A DNA stretch of 64,000 nt from an uncultured Verrucomicrobiae bacterium (GTDB taxonomy: Bacteria; Verrucomicrobiota; Verrucomicrobiia; Chthoniobacterales; UBA10450). Below are positions 4,669-32,653 of this stretch, piece after piece. The stretch covers positions 372,601 through 436,600 of the forward strand of contig CAWBSX010000004.1 in the NCBI GenBank assembly GCA_963791565.1. The letters run 5' to 3'. A model generated the notes under the pieces. The model had not been told where the DNA came from. It saw only the letters and a list, made by a program, of their open reading frames with translations, and searched no databases. The position numbers were made by a program, and so were the translations under genes. The stretch's first letter is position 1; each line of letters opens with the position of its first letter.

Positions 4669-4679
4669 TCGACCACTCG

Positions 4680-5672: not shown

Positions 5673-6016
5673 CAGGTCCGAACGGACTGCACGATCAGCA
5701 GCACGATATCGAGCAAGGCCACAACGATGATGAAGGCGCCGAATTTCTTCTTGCTCCAATACGGAATGGTCTCGTTAGGCGAAAGCTCCTCTGTGCGCTT
5801 CATCCCGGTCGGCGTCATCTCGAATCGCCAACCGATGATGAGCGCCATGGGAAATCCCAGCGCGACGATGATGATGAAAAACTTGAGCAGACCCGGTGCA
5901 TCCATCATTGGAAAAAAGATCCAGGCGAGATCAATCGCCAGCCAGGCGAGCAACAGGTAAACGACCGTGACCTTGTGCACGTTGCGGCGTCGAAATTCGC
6001 GAAAGAAATTGGTCAT
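5672..6016 (-). CDS. small integral membrane protein (2-3 TM), hypothetical
   Basis: 114 aa with hydrophobic segments. It overlaps the stop of the MBL gene and the start of the LLM gene by 1-4 nt. Confidence 0.5.
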
Positions 6017-6903: not shown

Positions 6904-6951
6904 CGGAAATTCGCGTTCGCACTCTCACGTCATTTGGTCGAAAAGAAAATC

Positions 6952-9103: not shown

Positions 9104-9119
9104 TTGCGGTAGTTATGGT

Positions 9120-9749
9120 TTGAATTTGAAAACCAGAAAACCAGAAAGTTCTGATTTCACCAAAGCGGAGCTGCGCAAACTGCGGGCGTTGAAAACACCG
9201 CAAGGCATTCAACGCTTTCTCGATTCGTTGCCGTATCATCTGGCGACGACGGCCTGGTCGCCGCGGCGCGTTTTGCAGGAAGGCACGGCGCATTGTCTGG
9301 AAGGCGCGATTTTCGCCGCGGCTGCGCTGCGCGCGCTCGGATATGCGCCGCTTATTTTCGACTTGGAAGCGGAACAGGATACCGATCACGTCGTGGCGAT
9401 TTATCGGACGCGCGGACACTGGGGCGCGATCGCCAAATCGAACTTCTCAGGTTGCCGCGATCGCACGCCGGTTTATCCGACCTTGCGCGAATTGGCCCTG
9501 AGTTATTTTCACATCTATTTCAATCTGCGCGGCGAACGGACGTTGCGTCGCTATTCGCAACCGGTGAATCTCGCGCGTTTCGATAAACGCGATTGGATGA
9601 CAACGGACCAGGAGGTTTGGTTTATCGCCGATTATCTCTGCGAAATTCCGCATCGTCCGGTGGTCAAGCGGACCTTGTTAAAAAATGCGTACCGCATAGA
9701 CGCGCGCACGATGCAGGCCGAGATGGTCGGTCATCGAAAGAAGCACTAA
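9120..9749 (+). CDS. hypothetical protein with a Cys/His/Asp motif (possible transglutaminase-like fold)
   Basis: The ORF frame continues from the antisense region. The start is probably a TTG just after the upstream gene's start at 9103. Motif GTAHCLEGAIFAAAALRALGY...DHVVAIY...GHWGAID. The start is uncertain. Confidence 0.4.
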   Translation: MNLKTRKPESSDFTKAELRKLRALKTPQGIQRFLDSLPYHLATTAWSPRRVLQEGTAHCLEGAIFAAAALRALGYAPLIFDLEAEQDTDHVVAIYRTRGHWGAIAKSNFSGCRDRTPVYPTLRELALSYFHIYFNLRGERTLRRYSQPVNLARFDKRDWMTTDQEVWFIADYLCEIPHRPVVKRTLLKNAYRIDARTMQAEMVGHRKKH

Positions 9750-9758
9750 CCTGCGTTC

Positions 9759-10478
9759 GTGGAGACGAAGACACATATTCTAATCACCGGTTCGACGCGT
9801 GGCATCGGCGCCGTCACGCGCGACGAATTGAAGAAACAGGGCGCTCGTGTCATCGGTCACGGTTCGCGCGCAGCCGGAGCGGAAGAAATCCCCGCGGATC
9901 TCTCGCAGCCCAATGCAGCGGATGCACTGTGGCGCGAAGCGATCGAACGACTCGACGGCCGGATTGACGTCCTGATCAATAATGCCGGCATTTACGAACC
10001 TGTGTCCGTTGGAGAGAGCACGGAAGTTTGGGAAGCGCGCTGGAATCGCACCATGCAGATCAACCTCCAGGCCGCAGCGGATCTTTGCCGACTGGCCGTT
10101 TCGCATTTCCGATCGCGCGCCGGAGGCGGTCGCATCGTCAATGTCGCGAGTCGCGCGGCCCATCGCGGTGATTCGCCGGAGCACTGGCATTACGCGGCGT
10201 CGAAAGCGGGCTTGATCGCTGTGACAAAGTCGATCGCGCGTGGATTCGCGACCGAAGAAATCTACGCCTTTGCCGTCGCGCCCGGTTTCACCATGACTGG
10301 AATGGCGGAAGATTACCTAACGAGTCGTGGAGGTGACGCGATCCTGAAAGAGATACCATTACGTCGCGTGAATTCCGCGGAAGAAGTTGCCAACGCGATC
10401 GTTTATCTCGCTCTGCACGCTCCAGCCGCAATGACCGGCGCGGTGATTGATATCAATGGCGCGAGTTACGTGCGCTGA
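9759..10478 (+). CDS. SDR-family short-chain dehydrogenase/reductase
   Basis: TGSTRGIGAVT (TGxxxGxG) and YAASK (YxxxK) are present. Confidence 0.9.
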   Translation: METKTHILITGSTRGIGAVTRDELKKQGARVIGHGSRAAGAEEIPADLSQPNAADALWREAIERLDGRIDVLINNAGIYEPVSVGESTEVWEARWNRTMQINLQAAADLCRLAVSHFRSRAGGGRIVNVASRAAHRGDSPEHWHYAASKAGLIAVTKSIARGFATEEIYAFAVAPGFTMTGMAEDYLTSRGGDAILKEIPLRRVNSAEEVANAIVYLALHAPAAMTGAVIDINGASYVR

Positions 10479-10481
10479 TTT

Positions 10482-10492
10482 GCCTAACGAGT
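10482..10492. repeat. representative copy of the hyper-abundant 11-mer GCCTAACGAGT (plus-strand reading), 4 nt after the SDR gene stop
   Basis: Exact match. See findings for the full set of about 90 copies. Confidence 0.9.
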
Positions 10493-10507
10493 AGTTAATT
10501 CGCTGCT

Positions 10508-10535
10508 AAAACGCGGCTGTCCTACCGCGTTTCAA
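10508..10535 (+). terminator. candidate intrinsic terminator after the SDR gene
   Basis: 8-bp stem AAACGCGG / CCGCGTTT with an 8-nt loop. The T-run is weak (TTT). Confidence 0.3.
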
Positions 10536-10698
10536 CCGTTGTCCCAAAAGCGGAACGGTCACATCCCAAGCACGACACGTTTCCGATGGACTCGTAAAAT
10601 GATCCACATTCTCAAGTGGCTGATTTAATGGTATTTGTGACTTGTTTTTGGCGGTGGCATAGGCCTTGCAAATAGAAGCGGCCTAACCAAACAAACCA

Positions 10699-10947
10699 AT
10701 GAAAAACAAAAACACTTATTCGCTTCTCGTTCAGTCCCAGGAGAAGGGTCGCTCGATTTTCGAAGCTTCGATTTATGGCCTCGTGATTCTCTGCACCGTT
10801 TTCTCCGCCTGGTCGTTCGCGGCGCATTCGATCATGTTGCCCGGAATGAACCACGTGGACAAAAACGCGGGGACGGAAATGGCCGCGCAAGCAGCGGCGG
10901 AGAACCCTGTCGCCATCGCGAGCAACGCCGACGCCAACGCGCTGTAA
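10699..10947 (+). CDS. small hypothetical membrane protein (82 aa) in the lower-GC region upstream of the ADOP cluster
   Basis: The ORF has a hydrophobic core (IYGLVILCTVFSAWSFAA) and sits in an otherwise gene-free 500-bp spacer. It may not be expressed. Confidence 0.25.
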   Translation: MKNKNTYSLLVQSQEKGRSIFEASIYGLVILCTVFSAWSFAAHSIMLPGMNHVDKNAGTEMAAQAAAENPVAIASNADANAL

Positions 10948-10980
10948 TCGTGGCGTTGCTAAACGCCTAACGAGTCCTGC

Positions 10981-13443
10981 GTGAACACGTTCCTGAAGGA
11001 TCTGCAGTATGCCGCGCGCATGCTGCTGAAAAATCCTGGTTTCAGCGCCATCGCGGTCATCGCTTTGGCGCTCGGGATCGGTGCCAACACCGCGATCTTC
11101 AGCGTGGTCAGCGCAGTTCTGCTGCGTCCGCTGCCTTATCCGCAGCCGGAACAAATCGCCGCCGTCTGGGCGGCGGACAATACCAAAGGACACGCGAAGA
11201 CTTCGTTTTCGTTTCCGGATTTTGCGGACGTGCGCGCGCAGAACCAGGTCTTCAGCGCGATGGCGGCGTACGACGATTCCGACATGACCGCGACCGACCG
11301 CGGCGCGGATGCCGAGCACATGCACGGCCTGCTGGTGACGTCGGATCTTTTTCGTGTCTTAAACGTGAATCCGATTCTCGGACGCGGCTTCACTGCCGAT
11401 GACGACAAACCCGGCGTGCGCGTCGTCGTTTTGAGCTACGACCTTTGGCAACGCCGGTTCGGCGGTGATCGCAACGTTCTCGAAAAAACGATCACGTTGA
11501 ACGAAACGCCGCATCAAATCATCGGCGTCATGCCGCCGACGTTCCGTTTTCCAATCGAAAAAACGTCCGCCGTTTTCTGGACTTCCGCCGCAACGCAATT
11601 TGAAGCCGCGCCCGGCAGCACCGAGACCTCAGCTTCGCAGCGCGGCATGCACTTCTTGCACTCCATCGCACGCCTCAAACCGGGTGTGAGCGCGGCACAG
11701 GCGGAAGCGAACACGAAGACCATCATGGCTTCGCTGGCCACGCAATATCCCGATTCGAACAAGCGCTTCGATTCCTCGCGCGTCGTCGCGCTTCTCTCCG
11801 ATCTAACTACCGATGTCCGTCCCGCGCTCGTCGTTCTCCTCGCCGCCGCCGGCTGCGTCTTGCTGATCGCATGCGTGAACGTGGCCAACCTTCTTCTCGC
11901 CCGCGCCACTTCGCGCGAAAAGGAAATGGGAATTCGCGCCGCGCTCGGCGCGAGTCGGGCGAGAATTTTCCGGCAGCTCCTCACCGAAAGCGCCTTGCTC
12001 TCGTTAGGCGGTGGCGCCGCCGGGATGTTGCTGGCCGTTTGGGGAACAGCCGGCCTCGCCGCGTTGCTTCCGCAAAATTTTCCGCGCGCAGAGGAGATCG
12101 GACCCGACCTGCGCGTGCTCGCGTTTACCGCACTCGTTAGTCTTTTTACCGGCCTCCTTTTCGGACTCGCCCCGGCCTGGCGCGTTTCGCGGCCTGATGT
12201 TGTCAGCGCGCTCAATGAAAGCGCGCGCGGCTCGAGCGAAACCGCGCGCGGTCGCCGCCTGCGCGGAATTCTTGTCACCGCCGAAATGGTGCTCGCGTTT
12301 GTCTTGCTCGTCGGCGCCGGGCTCTTGATCCGCAGCTTTTGGCAATTGCAGAAAGTGCCGATCGGCTTTGATCCAAACCACGTCATGACCGCGAGTGTTT
12401 CGCTGCCCGAGGGCGACGGCGGACCGGAAATCACCAAGCGCGACGAACAATTTTACGTGCAGCTGATGGAACGGGCCAACGCCATTCCCGGCGTCCGTTC
12501 GGTCGCGGCGATCAGCCCATTGCCCTTGAGCGGCGCGGATTGGCGAACCGGGTTCGACATCGCCGGCCGTCCCACCGCGAAGTCCGATCGAGCGCTGAGC
12601 GCGGCGCGCGTCGTTACGCCGGGTTATTTCGGCACGATGGGAATTCCGCTGCGCAAAGGCCGCGATTTCGATCCGCGCGATAAGTTCGAATCGGCCGGCG
12701 TTGTCATCGTGAACGAATCACTCGTTAGGCAATATTTTCCTAACGAAGATCCAATCGGGAAAAGAATCACACCGCAAATTTCACTGGATGTGCGCGAACC
12801 GATCGAGCGCGAGATCATCGGCGTGGTCGGCGATGTGAAGGCGCGCAAGCTAACCGCGGAAAATATGGCCGAGTTGTATCTGCCGCACACGCAGGCGCCG
12901 AGCGGCAGCATGACGATTGTCGCGCGCACCCATATGGAACCGCAGGCGATCCTGCCTTCGCTGCGCGGCGCGGTTGAAAGTTTGAACAAAGATCTGCCGC
13001 TCTACGAAACGCGGACCATGCAGCAATATCTTGATCGCGCCGTCGCGCAGCCGCGCTTGAACATGACACTGCTCATCGTTTTCGCGGGTGTGGCCATCGT
13101 CCTCACCGCCGTCGGAATTTACGGCGTGATGGCTTACTCGGTCGCACAACGCACCCAGGAAATCGGCATTCGCATGGCGCTCGGCGCGCAACGTTTCGAT
13201 GTTCTGCGACTCATCGTCGGACAAGGCGCGCGCTTGGTTGCGCTCGCGATGGTCATCGGCGTCGGCGCTGCGTTCGCCATGACTCGATCAATCGCCAGTC
13301 TGCTCTACGGCGTCGGGGCGACAGATTTCCCCACACTTTTCTCGGTCGCGCTTCTTCTCGCACTCATCGCGCTCCTGGCTTGCTGGTTGCCGGCGCGCCG
13401 CGCGAGCGGGATTGATCCGATCACCGCGCTACGCACGGAATAA
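10981..13443 (+). CDS. ADOP-family duplicated FtsX permease (MacB-like periplasmic core domain x2), copy 1
   Basis: 820 aa. N-terminus [43 protein letters not shown], and a C-terminus of the same kind ending ...[17 protein letters not shown] start. Confidence 0.85.
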
Positions 13444-13502
13444 TTCGTATGCGAGAAGAAGCGCGGCGCGACACTCTGGGTAGCGCAAGCGTCTCGCGCG
13501 CC

Positions 13503-13535
13503 GGTTTCGGTGTCTCGCCGAAACGAACTTTTTTT
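13503..13535 (+). terminator. intrinsic terminator between ADOP copy 1 and copy 2
   Basis: Stem GTTTCGG (13504-13510) / CCGAAAC (13518-13524) with a 7-nt loop, followed by a T7 run at 13529-13535. Confidence 0.55.
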
Positions 13536-13575
13536 CGAGCAAAGTCCACATCGCCTAAGGAGAGGAGAAACTTCG

Positions 13576-15987
13576 ATGAATAATTTTCGCTACGCACTTC
13601 GCCAGTTGCGTAAGTCGCCCGGGTTCACTTTTGTCGCTGTACTAACGCTTGCGCTCGGCATCGGCGCGAACACCGCGATCTTCACTGTCGTTCACGCAGT
13701 TTTGCTTTCACCGCTGCCGTTCCCCGACGCCGATCGCATCGTCGCGGTGCAATCGCGCAACCTGCAGGAGAATCTCAAAGGGCTGGGCTTCGCGCCCGCC
13801 GGATTCCGCGATGTCGAGAAACAGGTCACCTCTTTCGAGGCCATCGCGGCTTATCGCTATAACTACGACAATCTCACGCGCGTGGAGAAACCAACTTCGG
13901 TCAGCGGAAGTCTTGTCACGCAAGATTACTTTCGCGTGCTCGGCGAGAAGGCGCTGATCGGGCGCACTTTCACGCCCGAAGACGCCGCGGCCAACGCAAA
14001 ACCGACCGTTCTTCTGAGCTATGATTTCTGGCAGAAACAATTCGGCGGCCGGCGCGATCTCGTCGGCCAAACGGTCACGCTCGATGACGTTCCGCACGAG
14101 GTCATCGGCGTCATGCCGCGCACTTTCAAAGATCCATTTGGCATCGCCGCCGAGTGGCGACTCTTTCCGAACGAAGGCGGCGAGAACTTCGTCGCCAATG
14201 CGCGTTTCTGGGCCGTCATCGGACACATGAAAGCTGACGTACCAATGTCCACTGTTCAGGCCGAGCTCGGTACAATCAGCGCGCGACTCGCGCAGAGCGA
14301 TGCGAAATTCTACAAAGGCTGGGACATCAATCTGAGTCCGTTGCGCGATCAGGTCGTCGGAAATTATCGCGAAGGTTTACTGCTGGTGGTGGGCGCCGCG
14401 CTGGTCGTGTTGCTTATCACCTGCGCCAATGTCGCGGGTCTGCAATTTGTTCGCGCCTCGACACGACAACGCGAAGTCGCGATTCGACTCGCTCTTGGCG
14501 CGAGTCGCGGGGCGGTCGCGCGCGGACATCTGATCGAATCGCTGTTGCTCGTCGCGGTCGGTGGACTCGGGGGTGTGTTGCTCGCGAGTTGGGGATTGGA
14601 TGTGCTTCTCGCGAGCCTGGCGCGCGATTGGATTCCGCGCAGCGATGAAATCGCGCTCAACACGACGGTGCTTTTGGTCACCGGCGTGACCGCATTAGTA
14701 ACCGGAATTCTCTTCGGACTTTTCCCCGCATGGCACGCCACGCGCATCGACGCGATCGATTCGTTGCGCGACGGCGGCAAAGGGGGCTCGGCCGGTCTGC
14801 AATCGGTGCGACTGCGCGGCGCGCTCGTCATCGCACAAATCGCGCTCACGCTCGTGCTGCTGGTTTGCGCGGGACTGGTCTGGAAGAGTTTCGCCGCGAT
14901 CACGCGCGTGAATCCCGGGATTCAAATCGAGAACACGCTCAGCATGGTCATCACGCTCGCGCCCACGCAATACGACACGGGTCCCAAACGCATCGACTAT
15001 TTTCGTCAGCTTCTCGAACGCACAAGTGTGATTCCGGGAGTGGAATCAGTCGCGTTCACTCAGACGATGCCGTTCACGTGGGGAATCCCGGCGACGTTTT
15101 CTGTTTACGGCTCTTCGAACGACGAAAACAAATTGCCACCGGCCATCTACGATTCCGTTAGTCCATCGTATTTTTCGACGATGCACATTCCGCTGCTGGC
15201 TGGCCGGGTATTTGCGGAAACCGACAACGCGCAATCGCCCGGTGTGATCATGATCAGCCAATCAACGGCGAAGAAATTTTTCCCGAATGAAGATCCGATT
15301 GGAAAGCGTCTGATTCTTCCGCCGGGCCGTCAGCAACCGAATCCCGTGCCGCTCGAAATCATCGGCGTGGTCGGCGATGTGCCGCGCGATGGACTCAACG
15401 CCGACACGCCATACCAGGTCTACGCGAGTTTGAATCAGCGTGCGTGGGCCTTCGCCACATTGCTTGTGCGCTCGCCGCTTCCAGTCGAAACACTCACGCA
15501 GACAGTTCAGCGCGCGATCTGGGCCTTCAATCCGGAGCAGACAATTTCCAACGTCGCGCCGGTGCGCACGCTGGTGAAACAAAGCCTGACGCAGCCGCAA
15601 CTTTATCTCACGCTCTTCAGTCTCTTCGCGCTCCTCGCATTGCTGCTCGCCAGCATCGGTCTTTACGGGCTCATCGCTTACAGCGTCGCGCAGCGCACGC
15701 GCGAATTCGGCATTCGCTTCGCACTCGGCGCGCAGATTGGCGATGTGCTGCGACTCGTTCTCGGACAAGGCGCGCGGCTGACCGCGCTTGGCCTTGTCCT
15801 TGGTTTGCTGGGCGCGGCGGGAGTCGCGCGTCTCATGCAAACACTTCTCTTTCATACCGCCGCTTACGACCCGCTGGTCTTCGGCGGTGTTGTGTTAGTA
15901 CTCGCGGTCATCGGCCTTCTCGCCGCGTTGTTGCCAGCGTTGCGCGCGACCAAGGCCGACCCAGTCGCCGCTCTCCGCACCGAATAG
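13576..15987 (+). CDS. ADOP-family duplicated FtsX permease, copy 2
   Basis: The start is set at [39 protein letters not shown], which aligns with the N-termini of the paralogues. An AAGGAG sits 10 nt upstream. The track start at 13510 lies inside the terminator hairpin. Confidence 0.85.
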
Positions 15988-15997
15988 GAACGCCAAC

Positions 15998-18430
15998 ATG
16001 AACACACTGCTTCAAGATTTTCGTTACGCACTGCGCAAGCTCGTGCAGCAGCCCGCCTACACCATCATCGCCGTGCTCACGCTCGCGCTCGGCATCGGCG
16101 CGAACACTGCGATCTTCAGTGTGGTCAACGCGGTGCTTTTACGCCCGCTGCCTTATCCGGAACCTGATCGCATCGTTTATCTCAGCGAAGTAAACGGCGG
16201 GACGAACAGCGCGATCGCATTTCCGGATTACATCGATTGGCGCAACGATGCGAAATCGTTCGAGCATCTCGCACTCTCGCGCACGGAATCGCGAAACCTC
16301 AGCGGCATTGCCGGTCGTGAACCGGAGCGCGTCTCGGTCTCGTTCGTCACTGCGAACTTCTTTCGCGTGATCGGCCTCAATCCACAAATCGGCCGCACCT
16401 TTACGGACGACGAAGACAAGCCGGGCGCGCCGGCGCTGGTCGTGCTGAGCGATCGTTTGTGGGACCGCGTCTTCAATCGCGACCCAAACATCATCGGTCG
16501 CGCGGTGACGTTTCACGGTCAGCCGTTCACGGTCACGGGCGTGATGCCGCGGGAAATGGATTCGCCGCATGGCGTGGACGCGTGGTTCTCGGTGATGCGA
16601 CGGAGCGCAAACGCCGCCTGGCAGAATCGCGCCAATCATCCAATGCTCTTCGCCTGGGGCCGGCTGAAGAAAGGTATCACGGTCGAGCAGGCGCGAAGCG
16701 AGATAAAAACCATCGCGGCGCGATTGGAAAAAACTTACCCGGAAACGAACGCGGGCACGAGCGGCGAAGTAAAACCGCTGCTCGATAACTTGTTAGGCAA
16801 CTACCGCACAAGTCTCACGCTGTTGCTTTGCGCGGTCGCGCTCGTCCTCCTCATCGCTTGCGCGAATCTCGCCAATCTTTTCGCCGCGCGCGGTGCTTCG
16901 CGTTCGCGTGAGTTTGCCATTCGCGCCGCTATTGGTGCATCGCGCTTAGGAGTCGTTAGGCAATTGCTCATTGAAAGTTTTTGTATCGCGCTGATCGGCG
17001 GCGCGCTCGGTTTGCTCTTTGCCATTTGGGGACGCGACGCTCTTGTCGCCTTCGCGCCGGGTAATGCGCCGCGCTTCGAAGGCATCGGCTTCGATGCGCG
17101 CGTGCTCGGTTTCACTTTTCTGCTGGCCAGCCTGACGACAATTCTTTTCGGCCTCTGGCCCGCATGGCAGGTCGCGCACGCCGACATTCAAACCGCACTT
17201 CAAGCCGGTTCATTCGGTAGTTCCGAAACAAAAACAGCGCGGCGTAGTCGCGATTGGCTGGTCATCGCCGAAGTCGCGCTCACACTTTTGTTGCTCAGCG
17301 CCGCCGGTCTTGTTTTGAAGAGCTTCGCCAAGATGCAATCGGTCGCGCTCGGTTTCGAGCCGCGCGGACTTCTCACCGCGCGCATCGATTTGCCCTACAC
17401 GAAATACACCGATCACGAAAAGGTCGCGAACTTCGACAACGCATTGCTCGACGGCGTGCGGCGCTTGCCCGGCGTGCAAAACGCAGCCGTTGGCGCGAAT
17501 CCTCCGATGCTGAGCGGATGGCAGCTGAATTTTTTACCCGAAGGCGCGCCGCCGACTGATCCGAGCCAGCAGCCATCCGCCGATTCGGAAGTGATCGCGG
17601 GTGATTACTTCGCTGCGCTGCAAACAACATTGATCCGCGGCCGCACCTTCAACGCCGGCGACACCAAAGATTCGCCGCCGGTCGTGATCATCGATCAAAC
17701 GTTGGCCGAGACAGCTTTCCCGAAACAGGATCCGTTAGGCAAACGTCTCGCCATCGGTGGTGCCGACGGGAACAGCGAGGACATCATTCTCTATGAAATC
17801 GTCGGCGTGGTCGCGCACATGAAACTGCGCGGATACGACGACGTGCCAGCGATACCGGCATTCTTTTTTGCCGAAACGCAAACGGCGCGAACGAATCAGG
17901 TATTACTCGTTAGGGCGAGCGGCAATGTGAAGTCGCTCGAGAGATCGATTCGCGAAGTCATCAATCGCGTCGATCCAACACAGCCGGTTTTCGACTTCCG
18001 CGCCATGGAAGAACGCGTGGCCGAAACCTGGTCGACGCAACGTCTGCTTTCATTTCTTCTCGCGATTTTTGCGGGTCTCGCGTTGCTCCTCGCCGCAGTC
18101 GGCTTGTATGGCGTGCTTTCTTACACTGCATTGCGACGCTTACGCGAAATGGCGGTGCGCATCGCATTCGGCGCGCGACCTGCGGACATCCGCGGTTTGG
18201 TTTTCGGTCACGGCTTCCGTTTGTTCGGCGTAGGAATCGCGCTCGGCGCAATCGGCGTTGCTGGCTCTGCGCCCGTCATCCGCAGTTTTCTTTTCGGGGT
18301 CGCAACCGCTGATCTGCAGATTTTTGCCGCTGTCGGTATTCTGCTCTCGTTAGTCACCGTGCTCGCCGCGTGGTTACCCGCGCAACGCGCCTGCCGCGTG
18401 AATCCGATCATTGCGCTGCGCGCAGAATAA
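15998..18430 (+). CDS. ADOP-family duplicated FtsX permease, copy 3
   Basis: 810 aa, [43 protein letters not shown]. It is 10 nt downstream of copy 2. Confidence 0.85.
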
Positions 18431-18433
18431 TTC

Positions 18434-18444
18434 GCCTAACGAGT
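18434..18444. repeat. copy of GCCTAACGAGT in the 18-nt spacer between ADOP copies 3 and 4
   Basis: Exact match. The same extended form GCCTAACGAGTCCT also occurs at 10965-10978, upstream of ADOP copy 1. Confidence 0.9.
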
Positions 18445-18448
18445 CCTA

Positions 18449-20863
18449 ATGGAAACAACCCTTCGCGACATTCGCTATGGCTTGCGCACCCTGCGCAAAA
18501 ATCTCGGCTTCACCGCGGTGGCGGTGGTCGCCCTCATGCTCGGAATCGCGAGCACGACCGTCATCTTCAGCGTGATCAATGGCGTCCTGCTCCGCCCGCT
18601 GCCTTATCCGGACGCGGATCGGATCGTCACCATCTCGCAGACCATCGCCGCTTCGAATATTGCGCGCGGAGCGACAGCGCCGGCGAATTACGTCGATCTG
18701 GCGGCGCAGTCCGATGCCTTCGTCGCCATGGCTGCGTCGCGTGGCTGGCAGGGAAATCTCACCGAGGGCGACATGCCCGAACGTCTGCGCGTGACCATGA
18801 CGACGACGAACTTGTTTCAAGTTTTTGCGAGCGCGCCGATCCTCGGTCGCGGTTTGCAAGCGGCGGATGAACAGCCCGGTCGTTCGAATGTCGCCGTGCT
18901 TAGTCAGGGTTTGTGGGAACGGAAATTCGGGAGCGATCGCAACATCATCGGTCGCGAAATTCGTTTCGATGGCGAACCGCGCACCATCGTTGGCGTGATG
19001 CCGGCCAGTTTTTCACCGGATGATTACGGCGAACTTTGGGTGCCATCGCCTTTCGGTGTGCCAACGCATGCCTTGCGGCCGACGCAAGACCCGCGCCGAA
19101 TGCGCGACAGCAATTATCTCGATGTTTATGCGCGTCTGAAACCGGGCGTGACTTTGCAGCAGGCGCAAACGCAGTTGAGCGCGGTCATGGCGCGTTTGGA
19201 AAAAGATTACCCCGACGACAACATGGGCGAAGGCGTCGCCGTTACGCCGTTGCAGGAAGACAAAGCGGGCAGCATGCGGCCAGCGCTGCTCATGCTGGGC
19301 GCGGCGGTTGGATTTCTTCTTCTGATCGGTTGCGCGAACGTGGCGAACCTGCAGCTGGCGCGCGCGGCAGCGCGGTCACGCGAAGTTTCCATTCGCGCCG
19401 CGCTGGGCGCGGATCGCTCACGACTCGTTAGGCAACTTCTGACCGAAAGTATTTTGCTCGCGCTGATTGGCGGCGCGCTGGGAATTCTGGTCGCGGCCTG
19501 GGCCGTGCCGGTTTTGATGGCGATGGCGCCGCCCGCCTTGACAAGCTTCAAGGAAATTACACTCGATCGCGGCGTGCTCTTGTTCAGCCTGATCATTTCA
19601 TTACTAACTGGCGTGCTCTTCGGGCTGGCACCGGCTTTTCAAGCCTCATCGGCGAATCCGAACGACTCGTTAGGCGAAGGCGAACGCGGCAGCACGGCCA
19701 GTCACAGCCGCAGCCGGTCCGTTCTGATCGCGACGGAAGTTGGACTAACACTGGTCCTGCTCATCGGCGCGGGATTGCTCATCAGAAGTTTCGGGAAGGT
19801 CACCAAAGTCGATCCCGGTTTCACGCCGGAGAACTTACTTGTCTTTGACGTCGGCCTTCCGCCCGCGACGGACGACGCGCACAATCTCGCCTTTTATCAG
19901 CAGGTGGTGGAACGCGTGCAGGCTGTTCCCGGTGTGATGCGCGTCGGCGCGGTCAGCCGGTTGCCGTTCTCCGGCGGTAACAGCGGCCGCTCCTTCAATC
20001 TTCCCGGCAGCGACAAAAACTACGACGCCGACATTCGCGTGAGCACGCCGGATTATTTTCGCACGATGAACATTCCGCTTTTGCGCGGACGCGTCTTTAC
20101 TGAACAGGACACGAAAGATTCTGTGCGCGTTTGTGTGATCAACGACGCCACCGCGCGGATGGCGTTTCCCGGCGAAGATCCGGTCGGCAAATTCGTCGTC
20201 AATTTCGGACCGGACAGCGAGAAGCTGCAGATCATCGGCGTGGTCGGAAACATCCGGCATCTCGCGCTCGACACCGCGCCGCATCCGGAACTCTATCAAC
20301 CACTCGGCCAGGCAAAATGGCCGCGCATGTTCATCGCAATGCGAAGCGCCGTGGGAAATTCGCTCGCGTTATTACCGGCCGCGCAGAACGCGGTCTGGAG
20401 CGTCGATCGCAACGTCGCGCTCGGTAATGTACGCACGATGGAAGACACGATCGCGCGGACGTTGTTGAAGCGAAAATTCACCATGACGCTGCTGACAATT
20501 TTCGCCGGCATCGCCGTCGCGCTCGCCTCGATCGGTTTGTATGGTGTGATGTCGTATTCCGTTTCGCAACGCACGCGTGAGATCGGAATTCGCATGGCGC
20601 TCGGTGCGCAACGTGCGGATGTGCTGCGACTGGTCGTTAGGCAAGGGATGTTACTAACCGCGATTGGCGTCGGGCTTGGGCTGGCCGGTTCGCTTGGCCT
20701 AACGAGACTTATCTCGAGTTTGCTCTTTGGTATCAGCGCGACGGATGTCAGTACCTTCGGCGCGGTTTCGATTTTGCTGCTCGCGATCGCGTTACTGGCC
20801 TGCTGGCTGCCGGCGCGGCGCGCGAGTGGCGTCGATCCGATGGTGGCGCTACGAGCGGAGTAA
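18449..20863 (+). CDS. ADOP-family duplicated FtsX permease, copy 4
   Basis: 804 aa, METTLRDIRYGLRTLRKNLGFTAVAVVALMLGIASTTVIFSVI. The 18-nt spacer from copy 3 contains a copy of the 11-mer word. Confidence 0.85.
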   Translation: METTLRDIRYGLRTLRKNLGFTAVAVVALMLGIASTTVIFSVINGVLLRPLPYPDADRIVTISQTIAASNIARGATAPANYVDLAAQSDAFVAMAASRGWQGNLTEGDMPERLRVTMTTTNLFQVFASAPILGRGLQAADEQPGRSNVAVLSQGLWERKFGSDRNIIGREIRFDGEPRTIVGVMPASFSPDDYGELWVPSPFGVPTHALRPTQDPRRMRDSNYLDVYARLKPGVTLQQAQTQLSAVMARLEKDYPDDNMGEGVAVTPLQEDKAGSMRPALLMLGAAVGFLLLIGCANVANLQLARAAARSREVSIRAALGADRSRLVRQLLTESILLALIGGALGILVAAWAVPVLMAMAPPALTSFKEITLDRGVLLFSLIISLLTGVLFGLAPAFQASSANPNDSLGEGERGSTASHSRSRSVLIATEVGLTLVLLIGAGLLIRSFGKVTKVDPGFTPENLLVFDVGLPPATDDAHNLAFYQQVVERVQAVPGVMRVGAVSRLPFSGGNSGRSFNLPGSDKNYDADIRVSTPDYFRTMNIPLLRGRVFTEQDTKDSVRVCVINDATARMAFPGEDPVGKFVVNFGPDSEKLQIIGVVGNIRHLALDTAPHPELYQPLGQAKWPRMFIAMRSAVGNSLALLPAAQNAVWSVDRNVALGNVRTMEDTIARTLLKRKFTMTLLTIFAGIAVALASIGLYGVMSYSVSQRTREIGIRMALGAQRADVLRLVVRQGMLLTAIGVGLGLAGSLGLTRLISSLLFGISATDVSTFGAVSILLLAIALLACWLPARRASGVDPMVALRAE

Positions 20864-24163: not shown

Positions 24164-25024
24164 ATGGCCACAAACTCCTACGCACATCCAGAAGCCTTGG
24201 TGGACGCGGACTGGCTTGAAAAACATCGCAACGACGAAGGGATCCGCATCGTCGAGTCCAACGAAGACATCCTCCTTTACGACAACGGTCACATTCCCGG
24301 CGCCGTGCATATTGATTGGCGGACCGATCTTCAAGATCCGATCATTCGCGATTACATCACACCCGATAAGTTCGCCGAGCTATGCAGTCGCAATGGCATT
24401 ACGCCCGACACGACGTGCATCTTTTACGGCGACAAAGCGAACTGGTGGGCCTGCTACGCGCTGTGGGCTTTCCGCTTGTTCGGTCACGAGAAGGTAAAAA
24501 TCCTCAACGGCGGCCGCGACAAATGGAAAGCGGAAGGCCGGGAGATGACGCGGGAAGTTCCGAAGTATGCGCGCGCAAATTATCCGGTGCCGAAGAAACG
24601 TTACGACAAAGAGATTCGCGCTTTCGCCGATGAAGCACTCGCGCAGAGCAAGGCGGGTAAGCCGATGATCGATGTGCGTTCGCCTGGCGAATTCAAGGGC
24701 GAGATCACGCACATGCCCGAGTATCCGCAGGAGGGCGTACTGCGCGGCGGTCACATTCCCGGCGCGAAAAGCGTGCCCTGGAAAACGGCGACGAACGACG
24801 ACAGCACATTCAAATCCGCCGCGGAGCTGGAGAAAATCTACAAAGAGAACTGCGGCGTATCGTCCGACAAAGAAACGATCGTCTATTGCCGAATCGGGGA
24901 ACGTTCGAGTCACACCTGGTTCGTCCTCACGTATCTGCTTGGGATTGATAACGTGCGGAATTACGACGGCTCGTGGACGGAGTGGGGCAATAAAGTCGGC
25001 GCGCCAATCGAACGGAGCGCGTAA
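24164..25024 (+). CDS. thiosulfate/3-mercaptopyruvate sulfurtransferase (two-domain rhodanese, SseA-like)
   Basis: Tandem rhodanese domains with the catalytic loop YCRIGERSS in the C-terminal domain. Confidence 0.8.
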
Positions 25025-25032: not shown

Positions 25033-25488
25033 GTGTACCCGCCGAAACTCGATAAGATCATCCATCTCTTCGAAACGCTGCCGGAAGTGGAGCGGCGTGA
25101 GACGCTCGTTTCCTATGCCGACGGCGCGAAGAAGCAGGAACCGCGGCCTAACGAGAAGTTCGATCTCGAAGATATCCGCAAAGATGAGGAATGCGCCGAT
25201 ACCGTCGGCGTTTATTTACAGGTCGATGACGAAGGCAAAGCGCACTTCCGGATGTCGCTCGGACCGGAAGTGCAAACGCTGACACGCGCGATGACCTCGA
25301 TTCTTTGCAAAGGCCTCGACGGCGCGACGCCGCAGGAAGTTCTCGATCTGCCGAGCGATTTCGTTACGCGCATTGTCGGCGCCGAACTCGTGCGCGTGCG
25401 CAGCCAAACGACTTACTACATTCTCACCCGCATGAAGGGCATCTGTAAGGTTTATCTTGATCGGCAGCGCAAGATGGCCGCGGCTTAA
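25033..25488 (+). CDS. SufE-like sulfur acceptor protein
   Basis: 151 aa. Conserved Cys in DEECADTVGVYL, aligning with the GCQSQVW region of SufE. C-terminal KGLDGATPQEVL...RSQTTYYILTRMK resembles the SufE family. Confidence 0.55.
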   Translation: MYPPKLDKIIHLFETLPEVERRETLVSYADGAKKQEPRPNEKFDLEDIRKDEECADTVGVYLQVDDEGKAHFRMSLGPEVQTLTRAMTSILCKGLDGATPQEVLDLPSDFVTRIVGAELVRVRSQTTYYILTRMKGICKVYLDRQRKMAAA

Positions 25489-25539: not shown

Positions 25540-28500
25540 ATGCCGCGGAACAACGAGCTGCGAAAAATTCTCCTCATCGGCTCCGGCCCGATCGTGATCG
25601 GGCAGGGCTGCGAGTTCGATTATTCCGGCGTGCAGGCCTGCAAGGCTTTGCAGGAAGAGGGCTACGAGGTCGTGCTGGTGAACTCGAACCCGGCTACCAT
25701 CATGACCGATCCGGAATTCGCGGACCGCACTTACATCGAGCCGATCACGCCGGAAGTGATCGAAGCGATTCTCGAGCGCGAAAAGCCGGACGCGATTCTG
25801 CCAACAATGGGCGGCCAAACCGCGCTCAACGCCGCGATGGAATTGAATCGCAACGGCGCGCTCGCTAGGCACGGCGTGAAATTGATCGGCGCGAACGCGC
25901 AGGCCATCGCGAAAGGCGAAGATCGCCAGCTTTTCAAGGAAGCGATGTTGCGCATCGGTCTCGACGTTCCGCGCTCCGGCATCGCGCACAATCGCTCGCC
26001 GATGCGAACCGCGTCGCGGACACGATCGGAACTTTTCCGCTCATCATTCGACCCGCTTTCACGCTCGGCGGCACCGGCGGCGGCATCGCCTACAATCGCG
26101 AAGAGCTCGAGGAAATCGCCGAGCGCGGGCTCGCGCTTTCGCCGGTCACGCGAAGTCTTGATCGAGGAGTCGCTCGTCGGCTGGAAGGAATTCGAGATGG
26201 AAGTGATGCGCGACCACGCCGACAACTGCGTAGTCGTTTGCTCGATCGAAAACTTCGATCCGATGGGCGTGCACACCGGCGACTCGATCACTGTCGCGCC
26301 GGCGCAAACGCTGACCGATCGCGAATATCAATTGATGCGCGACGCGTCGTTCGCCGTGATTCGCGAGATCGGCGTGGAGACCGGCGGATCGAACATTCAG
26401 TTCGCCGTCAATCCGGACAACGGCCGCATGGTGGTGATCGAAATGAATCCGCGCGTCTCGCGTTCGAGCGCGCTCGCTTCGAAAGCCACCGGATTTCCCA
26501 TCGCGAAAATCGCCGCCAAACTCGCGGTCGGCTACACGCTCGACGAAATCAAGAACGACATCACGCGCGAAACGCCGGCGAGCTTCGAGCCAACGATCGA
26601 CTACTGCGTGGTCAAAGTTCCGCGCTTCACTTTCGAAAAATTTCCGCACGCCGACCCGACTCTAACGACGCAGATGAAGAGCGTCGGCGAAGCGATGGCG
26701 ATCGGCCGCACTTTCAAGGAGGCGCTGCAAAAAGCGCTGCGTTCACTCGAGATCAAGCGCTTCGGTCTGTGCGGCGACGGCGAAGGAAAAGCGCGTCGAT
26801 CCCGAAACATTGCGTCTCAAGCTCGCCATTCCGAATGCCGAGCGCATTTTCCATCTCGCGCAGGCGTTCCAGGACGGCATGCGATCGACGACGTCTTCGA
26901 GCTGACGAAAATCGACCGCTGGTTCCTGCACAATGTCGAGCAGATCGTGTAGGGCAGAACTGCACAGCTGGCAATCGATCGACTTGCGCCGAGCGAAGAA
27001 GCTCGGATTTTCCGATCGGCAACTGGCGATCGCGCACGGAACTTGAAAGAACAGACGATTCGCGCAACGGCGGAAAGCAGCAGAAAGTCATCCCCACTTA
27101 CCGACTGGTCGATACCTGCGCGGCGGAGTTCGAAGCGTTCACGCCGTATTACTATTCCACCTACGGGATCGAGAACGAGATGCGCCGCGACGCGAACGGC
27201 GCAAGATCATGATTCTCGGCGGCGGGCCGAATCGCATCGGGCAGGGAATTGAATTCGATTACTGCTGCGTGCACGCGGCTTTCGCGCTGCGCGAACTCGG
27301 ATTCGAAACCATCATGGTGAACTCGAATCCGGAAACGGTTTCGACCGATTACGACACGAGCGACAAACTCTATTTCGAGCCGCTCACGCTCGAAGACGTG
27401 CTCAATATTTACGATCAGGAAAAGCCGGAAGGTGTGATCGTGCAGTTCGGCGGACAAACGCCGCTGAATCTCGCGGCCGGTTTGCGCGCGGCCGGCGTTC
27501 CGATTCTCGGGACGCAACCGGAGAGCATCGAGATGGCGGAAGACCGCAAGCTTTTCGCCGCGATGCTGGACAAGCTCGGTTTGCGGCAAACGCCGAGCGG
27601 ATCGGCGGTGAGCGCCGACGGAAGCGATAGCGATCGCGGAACGAATCGGTTATCCAGTGCTCGTTAGGCCGTCGTTCGTCCTGGGCGGTCGCGCGATGGA
27701 ACTGGTTTACAACGACGACAGATCTCGAGCGTTACATGCAGAGCGCGATCGAGGTCAGCTCGGATCGGCCGGTCTTGGTCGATCGGTTTCTCGAAGACGC
27801 GATCGAGGTCGACGTCGATTGCATCGCTGATGGTGAGACTAGCCGTGATCGGCGCGATCATGGAGCACGTCGCAGCTCGCCGGCATTCATAGCGGGGACA
27901 GCGCCTGCGCCATCCCGACTTTTTCGCTCTCGACAAAACGTGCTCGACGGAAATCTCGCGCGCGACGAAGGCGATGGCGCGCGAGCTCGAACGTGCGCGG
28001 GCTGATGAATGTGCAATTCGCGGTGAAAGGCGACGACGTCTACGTGCTCGAAGTGAATCCGCGCGCCTCGCGCACCGCGCCGTTTGTCAGCAAAGCGATC
28101 GGCGTTCCGTTCGCAAAACTCGCCGCCAAAGTGATGACGGGAAAGACGTTGAGCGAACTCGGCTTCACCAAAGAAATTATTCCGAAACATTTTTCGGTGA
28201 AGGAACCGGTCTTTCCTTTCCTGCGTTATCAAGGAAGCGACACTGCGCCTGGGCCCGGAAATGAAATCTACCGGCGAAGTGATGGGCATCGATGCCGATC
28301 TCGGTCTTGCTTACGCCAAGGCGCAGATGGCCGCGCCGCCGCCCTGCCGAAGATCAGGAAATGTTTTCATCAGCGTGAAAGATTCGGACAAGGAAAGCGT
28401 CGTGCCATTGGCGCGTGATTACATCGCGCTCGGTTTCGGGATTATCGCGACCAGCGGAACGGCGGCGATGTTGGCCGCGGTCGGAATTCCAGTGCACCAG

Positions 28501-28750
28501 CGTTTTCAAATTACGCGAAGGCCGGCCGAACGTGCTCGATCGGATCAAGAACGGCGACATGCAGTTGATCATCAATACGCCGAGCGGAAAAATTCCACGC
28601 GAAGATGAAATCAAAATGCGCAGCGGCGCGCGCACATTGAAAATTCCGATCATCACGACGATGCGCGCGGCGCAGGCCAGCGTACACGGCATTGCTTCAC
28701 TGCAGAAAAGCAGTCTGCAGGTTAAGACGTTGCAGGAATATCACCTGTAA
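25540..28750 (+). pseudogene. carB: carbamoyl-phosphate synthase large subunit (carB) disrupted by at least 12 single-nucleotide frameshifts
   Basis: All CarB segments are present and colinear in three alternating frames. These include [30 protein letters not shown]..., [54 protein letters not shown]..., [24 protein letters not shown]..., [20 protein letters not shown]..., [47 protein letters not shown]..., EMKSTGEVMGIDADLGLAYAKAQ... and ...LIINTPSGKIPREDEIKMRSGARTLKIPIITTM. The frame switches near 25990, 26152, 26795, 26885, 26955-27210 (about 4), 27625, 27717, 27850-28010 (about 3), 28240, 28345 and 28495. No large deletions. Confidence 0.85.
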
Positions 28751-28954
28751 ACCCTACCATGCGCCGCCGCTGCAACCGCGCATGAGGACGAGCAAAATAA
28801 TCGTGCCGATAATTGAAACGACGATCGAGCCAAGACAGCCCATGCGGGAGGAAAAGAAAGCGAACATCGCCGCGGAAACGATGGTGGCGAGCGCATCAGC
28901 TGTGTGAAACGCAAAACGCGTGACACCGCGCGCGCTTCGTGTGACAGGTCTCGG

Positions 28955-29596
28955 ATGAAACTGACCTTGCTCGCTTGTCTCGCGACCGCGCTGGCCGCGA
29001 CGAACTTGTTTGGCCAAACCGAAACACCATCTGCTTCTCCGAACGCTTCTATGACTCCATCACCATCATCCAGTCCTGCCGCGAAAGAAGTCGCCGTCAT
29101 CAAAACAAGCGAAGGCGAAATGGTCGCCGAATTCTGGCCCGATGTCGCGCCGAACACGGTGGAGAATTTCAAGAAATTAGCGCGGCAGGGTTTCTACGAT
29201 GGCACTGCTTTTCATCGCATCATCAAAGGTTTCATGGCGCAGGGCGGCGATCCGCTGACCAAAGATCCCGCGAAAGAAAGCATGTGGGGCACCGGCGGTC
29301 CGGGTTACAAAGTGAAAGCCGAATTCAACAAAAAGCCGCATGAGCGCGGGGTTCTTTCCATGGCGCGCTCGAGCGATCCGGATTCGGCTGGTAGCCAGTT
29401 TTTTCTCTGCTTCGGCAAAGTCAGCCAGCTCGACGGGCAATACACGACCTTCGGCAAAATCATTAAAGGCGACGCCGTGCTCGACAAACTGGCCAACGTC
29501 GAAGTAACAACGAGCAACAGCGGCGAAAAAAGTAAGCCGGTCAATCGCGTCGGTCTTGAGAGCATCAAGATCGTGCCGGCGGACTCGGTGAAGTAA
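28955..29596 (+). CDS. periplasmic peptidyl-prolyl cis-trans isomerase, cyclophilin type
   Basis: Signal peptide MKLTLLACLATALAATNLFG; FHRIIKGFMAQGGDP...GVLSMARSSDPDSAGSQFFLCF...QYTTFGKII. The start is set at the internal ATG at 28955. Confidence 0.9.
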   Translation: MKLTLLACLATALAATNLFGQTETPSASPNASMTPSPSSSPAAKEVAVIKTSEGEMVAEFWPDVAPNTVENFKKLARQGFYDGTAFHRIIKGFMAQGGDPLTKDPAKESMWGTGGPGYKVKAEFNKKPHERGVLSMARSSDPDSAGSQFFLCFGKVSQLDGQYTTFGKIIKGDAVLDKLANVEVTTSNSGEKSKPVNRVGLESIKIVPADSVK

Positions 29597-29598: not shown

Positions 29599-30483
29599 AT
29601 GTCGGAGGCGAGCACCAACGTCGCATTGGTGCAGATGCAATGCGGGACGGATCCCGCGGCGAATCTGGAAAAGGCGATCGGGTTCATCCGCGATGCGGCG
29701 AAGAGCGGCGCGCAGATAATCTGTCTGCCGGAGCTTTTTCGATCGCAGTATTTTTGCCAATCGGAAGATCACAAATACTTCGCGCTCGCGGAAGAAATTC
29801 CCGGGCCGACCACGGACTCGTTAGGCAAACTCGCGGGCGAGCTTAAGGTTGTCATCGTCGCGTCGCTTTTCGAAAAGCGCGCTGCCGGCGTTTATCACAA
29901 CACCGCCGCCATCATCGATGCCGATGGGAAATTTCTCGGAAAATATCGCAAGATGCACATCCCGGATGATCCATCGTTTTACGAAAAATTTTATTTCGCG
30001 CCGGGCGACTTGGGCTTCAAAAACTGGCCCACACAACGTGGGAATATTGGTGTCTGTGTTTGCTGGGACCAATGGTATCCGGAGGCAGCCCGCCTGACGG
30101 CATTGCGCGGTGCGCAGTTACTTTTTTATCCGACTGCGATCGGATGGCATCCTTCTGAGAAGGAAAAGTATGGTCGCGCGCAATATTCCGCTTGGGAAAC
30201 AATGCAACGCAGTCACGCCATTTCGAATGGTTGTTTCGTCGCAGCCGTGAATCGCGTCGGTTTCGAAAATCCCGCGGGCGGCGACGGCATCGAATTCTGG
30301 GGACAAAGTTTCATGGTCGCGCCGAGCGGCGAAATTCTCGCGAAAGGCAGCGTTGATCGCGAAGAAATCATCCTGGCCGACGTGGATTGGAAACGCGTCG
30401 ATGAACACCGCACGCATTGGCCATTCCTGCGCGATCGTCGCATCGACGCCTACGCAGGCCTCGAGCGGCGGATGATCGACTGA
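29599..30483 (+). CDS. aguB: carbon-nitrogen hydrolase, N-carbamoylputrescine amidase-like
   Basis: Nitrilase-superfamily signature (catalytic E/K/C context, CVCWDQWYPE). About 294 aa, typical for AguB. The symbol is tentative. Confidence 0.7.
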   Translation: MSEASTNVALVQMQCGTDPAANLEKAIGFIRDAAKSGAQIICLPELFRSQYFCQSEDHKYFALAEEIPGPTTDSLGKLAGELKVVIVASLFEKRAAGVYHNTAAIIDADGKFLGKYRKMHIPDDPSFYEKFYFAPGDLGFKNWPTQRGNIGVCVCWDQWYPEAARLTALRGAQLLFYPTAIGWHPSEKEKYGRAQYSAWETMQRSHAISNGCFVAAVNRVGFENPAGGDGIEFWGQSFMVAPSGEILAKGSVDREEIILADVDWKRVDEHRTHWPFLRDRRIDAYAGLERRMID

Positions 30484-30509: not shown

Positions 30510-31058
30510 ATGAAAATCAGCTCCTTCGTTTTTCTTTTCGCGCTCGTTGTTGGTATGAGTGCGCCGTTTGCGGTTGCGCAGGATGTGCAACAAGCAGTCG
30601 CCGTAGTTCAACCGACCGCCAACAGCAAAGTCACCGGCACGATCACGTTCACGAAATCAGCCGATGGTGTGAAAGTTGTCGGCGACATTAATGGCCTCAC
30701 ACCGGGCAAACATGGTTTCCATATCCACGAATTCGGTGATTGCTCTGCGCCCGACGCCACCTCGGCTGGCTCTCATTTCAATCCGAGCAAACACCAACAC
30801 GGTGCGCCGGATGCGAGCGATCGTCATGACGGCGACATGGGAAACATCGAAGCCGATGCTTCCGGCAAAGCACATGTCGATTACACAGATAAAATGATGA
30901 AACTGAGCGGCGCTGATTCCATCATCGGTCATGCGGTGATCGTGCACGAAAAAGCCGATGATTTGAAAACGCAGCCGACCGGCGATGCCGGCGGTCGTCT
31001 GGCGTGCGGTGTAATCGGAGTGGCAAACCCTAACATGTCTCTGCATAGCACTCGTTAG
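30510..31058 (+). CDS. sodC: Cu/Zn superoxide dismutase (periplasmic)
   Basis: GFHIHEFGDCS, GSHFNP, HGAPDASDRHDGDMGNIEA, GHAVIVHEKADD, GGRLACGVIG. The start is set at ATG 30510 (signal peptide MKISSFVFLFALVV). The stop TAG is embedded in a copy of the 11-mer. Confidence 0.9.
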   Translation: MKISSFVFLFALVVGMSAPFAVAQDVQQAVAVVQPTANSKVTGTITFTKSADGVKVVGDINGLTPGKHGFHIHEFGDCSAPDATSAGSHFNPSKHQHGAPDASDRHDGDMGNIEADASGKAHVDYTDKMMKLSGADSIIGHAVIVHEKADDLKTQPTGDAGGRLACGVIGVANPNMSLHSTR

Positions 31059-31348
31059 GCGCCACTCAGACACCCCTGAACGCCGCTGTTCCGTAACTGT
31101 CTAATATCGCAGTTCTTTGTTAGTGCTGAGCGGATCCGCCTGGGGCGGATTCGACGGGGGACCCAAATTTCGCGCAAGCGATCGGGGCGCATGACGCTGC
31201 GGCGTCAGGAGCACTTGGTGGCTCTAGCCCGACAGCTAACTCCGTAAGCGAAACACCGAGAGCAGGGAGCGATTCCTGAGTCTCAAAAAAAGTTCGCCTT
31301 CCGCAAATAGTGCGAGCGCAAGCCGCAAGGCTTTAGAAGGAGATAGTC

Positions 31349-32653
31349 ATGAATGCCGTCAGGAAACTGGTGGTGTTTGTGGTGCTCGTGTCGGTCGCGA
31401 TTGCGATCGAGCGGGCGTGGTTAGGTGCAGTGCAGCCGCAAATCGCGACGCGGGTCGCGGTCGAGCAGCTCAATGGAAACGACAATGCGTTTCGGCAACT
31501 GCGTTTGTTCGAAGTGTTCAAGGACATCGCGGATGGCGTCGTGGTCATCGCAGCGATCGGACTCGCGTGGTGGCTTGTCGCCAAACCGGCCAGCACGCGG
31601 CGCGATTGGCCACGTTTGATATTGATCGGCGCGTTGCCGCTCCTGGCAATGAGCGGTTGCGTGCGGCCCTTCGACACGCCGGAATATGCGGAGATCAATA
31701 CCTCCGAGACGGGATTCCTTATTCCGCTCGAAGGCGACAGCACCGCGCAGGCAAAATTCCAATCGGAAGAATATCTGCGCGATTTGAAAGTCGCAGCCAA
31801 ACGCGTGCAGATCACGCATCGTTGGTCGCAGGAAGGACGGCTGCCGGGAAACGGCCGCTGGATTCCGACCGTGCGTTTGATCAAAGTGAATCGTTCGCCG
31901 ATCACGCGCGAATGGACAGCGGAAGCTACGACCGGCACGGCGGCGAAGAACCAGGCCATCTGGATCGAGAGCTCCGATAGCGTCGGATTCAGTATGGGAT
32001 TTACCTGCACTGCTTTCATTCCCGAAGAGCAGGCGGCGAAATTCCTGTATTGGTATCCGAGCGGCTCGCTCTCGGAAGTGATGGATGCCGAAGTGCGCGG
32101 CCGTATTCAACAAGTATCGGCTGAGATCGCGGCGAAATATCCGCTCGACGCCTTGCGTGCACGCAAACAGGAAATATCCGACGCGGTGAAGACTGACGTC
32201 ACGCAATTCTTCGCGCAACGCGGTGTTGTGATCACGACCGTCGGAATGTTCGGCGGCATGACCTACGAGAACGGCGAGATCCAGAAGGCGATCGACAACA
32301 CGATCATCGCACAACAGCTCAAAGTGGTGAACGAAGCGAAATGGGAAGCACAACAGCGCGATAACGATCGCGTAACGCTCGAGGCAAACGCAGTAGCGGA
32401 ACGGGCGCGGCGCATTGCCGCTGGCGAAGCGGATGCGAAAAAAATCGCGGCTGATGCCGAAGCACAGTCGATTCGCGAAGTCACGAAAGCTCTCGCGGAC
32501 GCCAAAGAGAATCCGTTGCTCTATCAACTGCGCGCGCTCGAAGTAGAACGCGCCCGAGTCGAACACTGGAACGGTCAATACCCAAGCTGGTTCATGGGCA
32601 CCGCGGCGAGTTCGCCGAATCTGATGCTGCAAATGCCCGCGCCCCCGCGCTAA
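31349..32653 (+). CDS. SPFH/band-7 (stomatin/prohibitin-like) membrane protein with a coiled-coil C-terminus
   Basis: N-terminal TM segments, an SPFH core, and an Ala/Glu-rich coiled coil (AERARRIAAGEADAKKIAADAEAQS). A strong RBS, AAGGAGA, sits 5 nt upstream. Confidence 0.75.
   Translation: MNAVRKLVVFVVLVSVAIAIERAWLGAVQPQIATRVAVEQLNGNDNAFRQLRLFEVFKDIADGVVVIAAIGLAWWLVAKPASTRRDWPRLILIGALPLLAMSGCVRPFDTPEYAEINTSETGFLIPLEGDSTAQAKFQSEEYLRDLKVAAKRVQITHRWSQEGRLPGNGRWIPTVRLIKVNRSPITREWTAEATTGTAAKNQAIWIESSDSVGFSMGFTCTAFIPEEQAAKFLYWYPSGSLSEVMDAEVRGRIQQVSAEIAAKYPLDALRARKQEISDAVKTDVTQFFAQRGVVITTVGMFGGMTYENGEIQKAIDNTIIAQQLKVVNEAKWEAQQRDNDRVTLEANAVAERARRIAAGEADAKKIAADAEAQSIREVTKALADAKENPLLYQLRALEVERARVEHWNGQYPSWFMGTAASSPNLMLQMPAPPR

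Follow-up and report, generated by a model that had tools for sequence, protein, structure and literature searches.

The 64,000-nucleotide stretch of DNA analyzed here (the window), from a contig of an uncultured Verrucomicrobiae bacterium, carries on its forward strand the gene for the large subunit of carbamoyl-phosphate synthase, carB (25540-28750), in which 18 small insertions and deletions (indels) change the reading frame. We think it very probable (about 0.87) that these indels are artefacts of a local failure of the consensus of a long-read metagenome contig, the organism itself most likely having an intact and functional carB. We favor an error of this kind because the gene shows no decay besides the indels, it is the syntenic orthologue, the events are extremely localized, their signature matches that of noisy contigs from related bacteria, and a second, isolated frameshift lies elsewhere in the window.

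The original prediction, made from the letters of this DNA and a list of its open reading frames (ORFs), was that carB contains at least 12 frameshifts. We performed frameshift-aware protein-to-DNA alignments against the intact CarB proteins of two Chthoniobacterales metagenome-assembled genomes (MAGs), L003 and L001, and of the closest relative found, L086 (P0190), and we cross-checked them by direct nucleotide alignment of the carB region to L086. The cluster is indeed there, and the predicted count was too low: the three protein references and the nucleotide alignment agree on 18 frame-changing events, all within 25990-28501, and with a lower frameshift penalty two references reveal an extra compensated -1/+1 pair at 28346/28353. 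Insertions account for 17 of the events (14 of 1 nt and three of 2 nt); the other is a 1-nt deletion at 26881. With 18 frame-changing indels, the deposited DNA has no single uninterrupted carB reading frame, and the ORF map of 24.5-30 kb shows the gene broken into many ORFs in three frames. As predicted, these fragments and the frameshift-aware alignments give a colinear CarB with all segments there; alignments to intact orthologues revealed no larger deletions and no missing segments. The gene assignment draws on the ORF fragments, the colinear alignment, and the profile matches given below.

The events are dense and sharply confined. Their density in the core (25990-28501) is ~7-8 per kb, or ~8 per kb for the 18 events together with the compensated pair, and the ends of the gene are clean, with no events in the first 450 nt or the last 250 nt. 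The nucleotide alignment to L086 shows that the core boundaries are sharp; no repeats or junction signatures were found at these borders, except for the known internal duplication of CarB.

We placed the single indels, all on the forward strand, using protein alignments to L003 and L001 (for most of them also to L086) and the nucleotide alignment to L086. The core opens with a 2-nt insertion at 25990-25991, and the frame lost there is regained through a 1-nt insertion (CAC-G-CGAAG) at 26150-26151; between the two, residues 151-203, to which the glycine-rich ATP-grasp loop belongs, are translated in the wrong frame with no stop codon. Because the +2 at 25990 is offset by the +1 at 26150, the 470-aa ORF in this part of the gene has a stop-free, out-of-frame stretch of 53 residues. 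There follow a 1-nt insertion at 26782-26792, whose placement is ambiguous (GGC|G at 26782 or the A4 run at 26789-26792), and the only uncompensated deletion, 1 nt at 26881-26883. A 1-nt insertion in the variable linker between the two halves is also ambiguous in placement (26949-26974); the seemingly in-frame TAG at 26950-26952 vanishes once this neighboring shift is moved a few bases earlier, showing that the stop is a consequence of the shift and not a nonsense substitution. Two 2-nt insertions, at 27042-27045 and 27187-27193, lie on either side of 1-nt insertions at 27064-27067 and 27082-27083. Further 1-nt insertions are found at 27614-27620, 27719-27720, 27838-27844, 27871-27872, 27931-27939, 27949, 27988-27992, and 28248-28251. 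The compensated pair (28346-28353), which turns a conserved LPK into CRR, appears in the low-penalty alignments and in the protein alignment, and the last event is a 1-nt insertion (CACC-A-GCG) at 28495-28501.

When the frame is restored, the product is an ordinary CarB. The corrected 1063-aa protein matches the NCBIfam equivalog profile NF003671 with 1693 bits (cutoff 599), aligning residues 1-1062 to positions 1-1058 of the 1058-position profile, and matches TIGR01369 with 1519 bits (cutoff 1027). Its Pfam domains follow the canonical order of duplicated halves, oligomerization domain, and C-terminal MGS-like domain: CPSase_L_D1, CPSase_L_D2, CPSase_L_D3, CPSase_L_D1, CPSase_L_D2, MGS. It is 93.5% identical to the CarB of L086. 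In the alignment to L086, no in-frame stop is left after correction, bearing out the prediction that the stops arise from the shifts. The dN/dS ratio of carB relative to L086 is 0.057 (0.061 in the indel-rich core), compared to 0.02-0.08 for five flanking genes. At the 276 alignment columns in which 32 other CarB proteins show no variation, the corrected sequence has two private changes, and almost all intact orthologues have 0-5; at one of the two, HVQLAG, the L086 DNA encodes the same residues, so that this change looks lineage-specific. Neither sign of relaxed selection, a raised dN/dS or an excess of change at invariant residues, was found in the restored gene. The restored frame thus encodes a CarB that is normal and evolves under purifying selection, and nothing sets it apart from an orthologue under selection.

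Comparing the orthologous locus in relatives, as had been proposed with the original prediction, we found that the genes of L086 (GCA_038237435.1, 427-kb contig) are arranged as in the window between those for the ADOP permease and the HD-domain protein, and that its carB, in the corresponding position, is intact and encodes 1062 aa. The two sequences align over 8.3 kb at ~85% nucleotide identity (87% across carB). Outside carB there are two indels, both of 3 nt and intergenic, and no frame-changing indel in the remaining ~5 kb of this alignment. The order rhodanese-SufE-carB-cyclophilin, with an intact carB, also occurs in other relatives. The gene is uninterrupted in L086, L001-L006, L009, and more than 100 relatives in the databases; a search with the corrected protein at full length yields >100 CarB proteins that are intact, some of them encoded on contigs of 0.4-4.2 Mb. 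Intact carB genes are present in many assemblies of Chthoniobacterales, among them short-read MAGs of the same clade. From its sequence and context, the carB of the window is the syntenic orthologue, not a paralogue or a spare copy. It is the only carB locus in the window, which contains no second carB and no carA. The prediction had noted that carA is missing upstream; this stands, and it is no anomaly, since relatives with an intact carB share the rhodanese-SufE-carB-cyclophilin order and the lack of an adjacent carA is normal for the clade.

The same kind of indel is found in noisy assemblies of related soil bacteria. In five ENA metagenome contigs with Flye-style names (L081-L085), carB carries 3-23 frameshifts each; pooled with those of the window, the 86 events comprise 75 insertions and 11 deletions and show no association with homopolymers or motifs. 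One of these contigs, L082, has 1-8 frameshifts, mostly 1-nt insertions, in each of its genes for rhodanese, SufE, cyclophilin, CN hydrolase, SOD, and the HD-domain protein, and its uniform indel density is that of the carB core in the window. With noise in every gene tested, L082 serves as a control: the indel signature is an error profile general to contigs of this kind and is not peculiar to carB. Another, L081 (ENA ERZ25039579 contig_82000, 1-13626), is palindromic: two rhodanese-SufE-carB arms in inverted orientation flank an Xre-type toxin-antitoxin gene. Identity is 92.7% between the arms and ~94.5% between either arm and L084, and the arms show mosaic similarity to a third strain. L081 looks like a chimera of co-occurring strains, and related strains of 92-95% identity do seem to be mixed in such assemblies. 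A real inverted duplication of carB, which this contig had suggested, was rejected on the same identities.

The window ORFs P0177 and P0189 (the 470-aa carB ORF) are proteins of a single NCBI/ENA contig of 613,444 bp, a size often seen in long-read MAGs from soil and one that points to a long-read assembly. In appearance, the related ENA assemblies resemble the output of a Danish project on soil, which was Nanopore-only and used Flye with one round of Medaka (PMC12313526), and they may derive from it. Nanopore bins below ~40x are reported to need polishing because indels fragment their gene calls (PMC9262707).

The positions of the events are not random. The prediction that several of the shifts lie in homopolymers holds for a few at most, such as the ambiguous one at 26782/26789-26792: only 3 of the 18 have a run of at least three identical bases nearby, against a background of 23%, and homopolymer slippage was rejected for this reason. 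Around the 86 pooled events, k-mer enrichment revealed no shared motif; the best of 202 tetramers reached P 0.005, and no 3-mer or 4-mer was significant after correction for multiple tests. Errors at methylation motifs, considered when GATC seemed frequent by eye, were rejected as well, with no k-mer significant. There is a bias toward variable positions. Local conservation averages 0.536 over the 18 sites, compared to a gene mean of 0.73. In 22 simulations, in each of which 18 random insertions were made in an intact carB and aligned in the same way, the average came to 0.724 +/- 0.038 and never fell below 0.628, so that the observed value lies ~5 SD below; these simulations rule out an alignment artefact as the cause of the bias. 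Moreover, 13 of the 18 sites have an event of some other noisy carB no more than 3 residues away, compared to ~6 expected (P ~0.001). One of the shared sites, reference residue 811, shows an insertion in the window and a deletion in L082; these opposite indels suggest that errors cluster there and speak against a conserved recoding site.

The neighboring genes had been predicted to be intact, and for those flanking carB and for the ADOP genes this is the case. Upstream, the genes for the rhodanese sulfurtransferase (24164-25024, forward strand) and SufE (25033-25488, forward) have full-length Pfam matches and no frameshift relative to L003 or L086; downstream, those for cyclophilin (28904-29596, forward) and CN hydrolase (29599-30483, forward) are intact. 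The DEAD helicase, lactamase-rhodanese, SOD, and HD-domain genes are also full length or free of frameshifts, as are four tandem paralogues encoding ADOP-type MacB_PCD/FtsX permeases of 804-825 aa (10981-20863). An exception lies further along, ~29 kb downstream of carB, where one frameshift near 58188-58208 divides the gene for a conserved hypothetical membrane protein (57893-58727, forward strand) into the overlapping ORFs 57890-58405 and 58167-58727. The lead came from a codon-usage Viterbi scan, which is too crude to be trusted as more than a lead. The merged product matches intact homologues of 275-300 aa from Chthoniobacterales at 95-100% coverage, and the frameshift emerges from frameshift-aware alignment to four of them; one possible placement is next to a T4 run. 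This shows that the contig has sporadic indels outside carB too.

A local collapse of consensus quality, one of the explanations offered with the original prediction, is probably the right one, favored by the normality of the restored gene and by the indel signature of the noisy contigs. Consensus building or polishing over a stretch of ~2.5 kb may have used a heterogeneous pile-up of reads. Such a pile-up could stem from strains that occur together, from a recombinant tract, from reads of relatives that were cross-mapped, or from a haplotype branch with little coverage. If both alleles were retained at variable sites, net insertions would follow.

Several points weigh against this explanation. 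That the indels lack read support is an inference, as is the retention of both alleles. The explanation does not account for the restriction of the cluster to carB. Other cases of noise concentrated in carB (L083, L085, and one arm of L081) were found with a carB-fragment query, so that they are biased by ascertainment. Finally, the Nanopore errors described in the literature consulted are mainly homopolymer indels, and the carB events are not.

The residual indels of Nanopore-only assemblies built with Flye and Medaka (PMC9262707; PMC12313526; proovframe, 10.1101/2021.08.23.457338) resemble those in the window in that small indels split a conserved gene into ORFs, and related soil assemblies of apparently such a build show the same signature. 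Theirs, however, chiefly alter homopolymer length and are spread genome-wide, whereas those in the window are non-homopolymer, show a 17:1 excess of insertions, occupy 2.5 kb of an otherwise clean 64 kb, and fall at variable codons. Strain-collapsed or chimeric consensus sequences in long-read metagenomes, the target of Strainberry (PMC8302730) and Strainy (10.1101/2023.01.31.526521), offer a second parallel, given the apparent mixture of strains at 92-95% identity in a related contig and the location of the events at variable sites. The difference is that the heterogeneity is seen in the related contig, whereas for the window's own reads it would have to be assumed.

A variant of the consensus artefact, rather than a contradiction of it, is that a few raw long reads bridge two well-covered parts of the contig at low coverage, with no strain heterogeneity involved. 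We regard this as possible but doubtful. It would account for the sharp boundaries and for an indel density equal to that of L082. On the other hand, random read errors should spread evenly, and the events instead avoid conserved positions by ~5 SD; no excess of substitution noise was detected either, in a test of low power.

Alternatively, the indels could be real, carB having been inactivated very recently in this lineage; the organism would in that case need arginine and pyrimidines from outside, or a different enzyme. One of the original proposals was a very recent pseudogene that arose from a duplicate of carB. The frameshifts do stand in the deposited sequence, and the window contains no carA or second carB. 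Nonetheless, this seems unlikely. In bacterial mutation accumulation and in bacterial pseudogenes, indels make up about one-tenth of spontaneous mutations, are concentrated in homopolymers, and lean toward deletions. At that ratio, 18 real indels should bring ~100-200 substitutions and several stop codons. Instead, the at least 18 indels come without excess amino-acid change and without a nonsense substitution, the dN/dS of the core (0.06) is like that of the neighbors, and a 17:1 excess of non-homopolymer insertions fits no bacterial indel expectation. Duplication is disfavored because there is a single locus, the syntenic orthologue, whose counterpart in the closest relative is intact. Genuine pseudogenes with multiple frameshifts are found in reduced or host-restricted genomes, where substitutions, stop codons, and deletions accumulate. 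The window resembles them in having a biosynthetic gene with many disruptions of the frame beside intact neighbors, and it differs from them in that carB shows no decay beyond the indels.

We consider it very improbable that the insertions are real and supported by reads in the sense that a soil Chthoniobacterales population carries a carB allele altered by a mutational process that makes only insertions and acts on a local target, related populations having undergone similar events. If the insertions were real, they would imply either a very recent inactivation by an unknown mechanism or expression of the gene through dense bypass of the frameshifts. Such a bypass would yield full-length CarB by RNA editing, by slippage during transcription, or by programmed +1/+2 ribosomal frameshifting at high density. 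Programmed frameshifting and editing had been judged implausible at the outset, and we find almost no room for a bypass of any kind: each conserved segment is kept in some frame, the shifts go nearly all in one direction (extra nucleotides), and their positions partly coincide with shifts in other assemblies, but no 3-mer or 4-mer is significantly enriched around the events, residue 811 has an insertion in the window and a deletion in L082, orthologues including L086 are uninterrupted at the shift sites, the same kind of indel affects unrelated genes of L082, and 18 consecutive events would each need near-perfect efficiency. Known frameshifting systems, the nuclear genes of Euplotes and the mitochondrial cox1 of Perkinsus, use a recurring shift motif at conserved sites and operate genome-wide. 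They share with the window many +1/+2 shifts inside a coding sequence whose segments are conserved; in carB, by contrast, there is no motif, the sites are not conserved, one gene is affected, and the orthologues are uninterrupted.

Recurrent breakage specific to carB was suggested at one stage by a 210-aa query whose matches were all fragments (<=368 aa), many of them encoded on long contigs. This was rejected as a bias of the short query, the full-length query having returned the intact proteins described above; there are many intact relatives of 1060-1100 aa whose identity to the short query equals or exceeds that of the fragments. Short protein queries seem to favor short, fragmentary database entries, which gives a false impression of widespread gene fragmentation.

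Other observations concern the architecture of CarB in the phylum and the surroundings of the gene. The CarB proteins of Verrucomicrobiota are often 1300-1384 aa long (L002:5377-9483 and L004:4870-9027; P0192, P0195, P0256, P0260, and others). These long forms contain an IS200/RayT-like Y1 transposase domain (PF01797), in frame, in the linker after the oligomerization domain; JGI names them 'carbamoylphosphate synthase large subunit/REP element-mobilizing transposase RayT'. The carB of the window lacks this insert. In two further Verrucomicrobiota loci, L007:5347-6864 and L011:5173-6864, the N-terminal half of CarB alone aligns (~500 aa) and the downstream sequence is unrelated; these may be naturally split carB genes. 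Downstream of the CN hydrolase gene, a 1.6-kb segment (31031-32651) with a gene for a 434-aa SPFH/Band-7 protein (31349-32653) is absent from the otherwise colinear L086 and present in L002.

The frameshift cluster is most likely not a real biological feature, and the locus is biologically ordinary. The finding serves as a warning that an otherwise clean contig of 613 kb can hide a kilobase-scale pocket with ~8 indels per kb. If heterogeneous pile-ups are the true cause, this would be a specific and fixable failure of consensus polishing in strain-rich samples. Such pockets may escape quality checks focused on homopolymers; the genes within them would be misannotated as pseudogenes, which could lead to the wrong inference that the organism is auxotrophic for arginine or pyrimidines.

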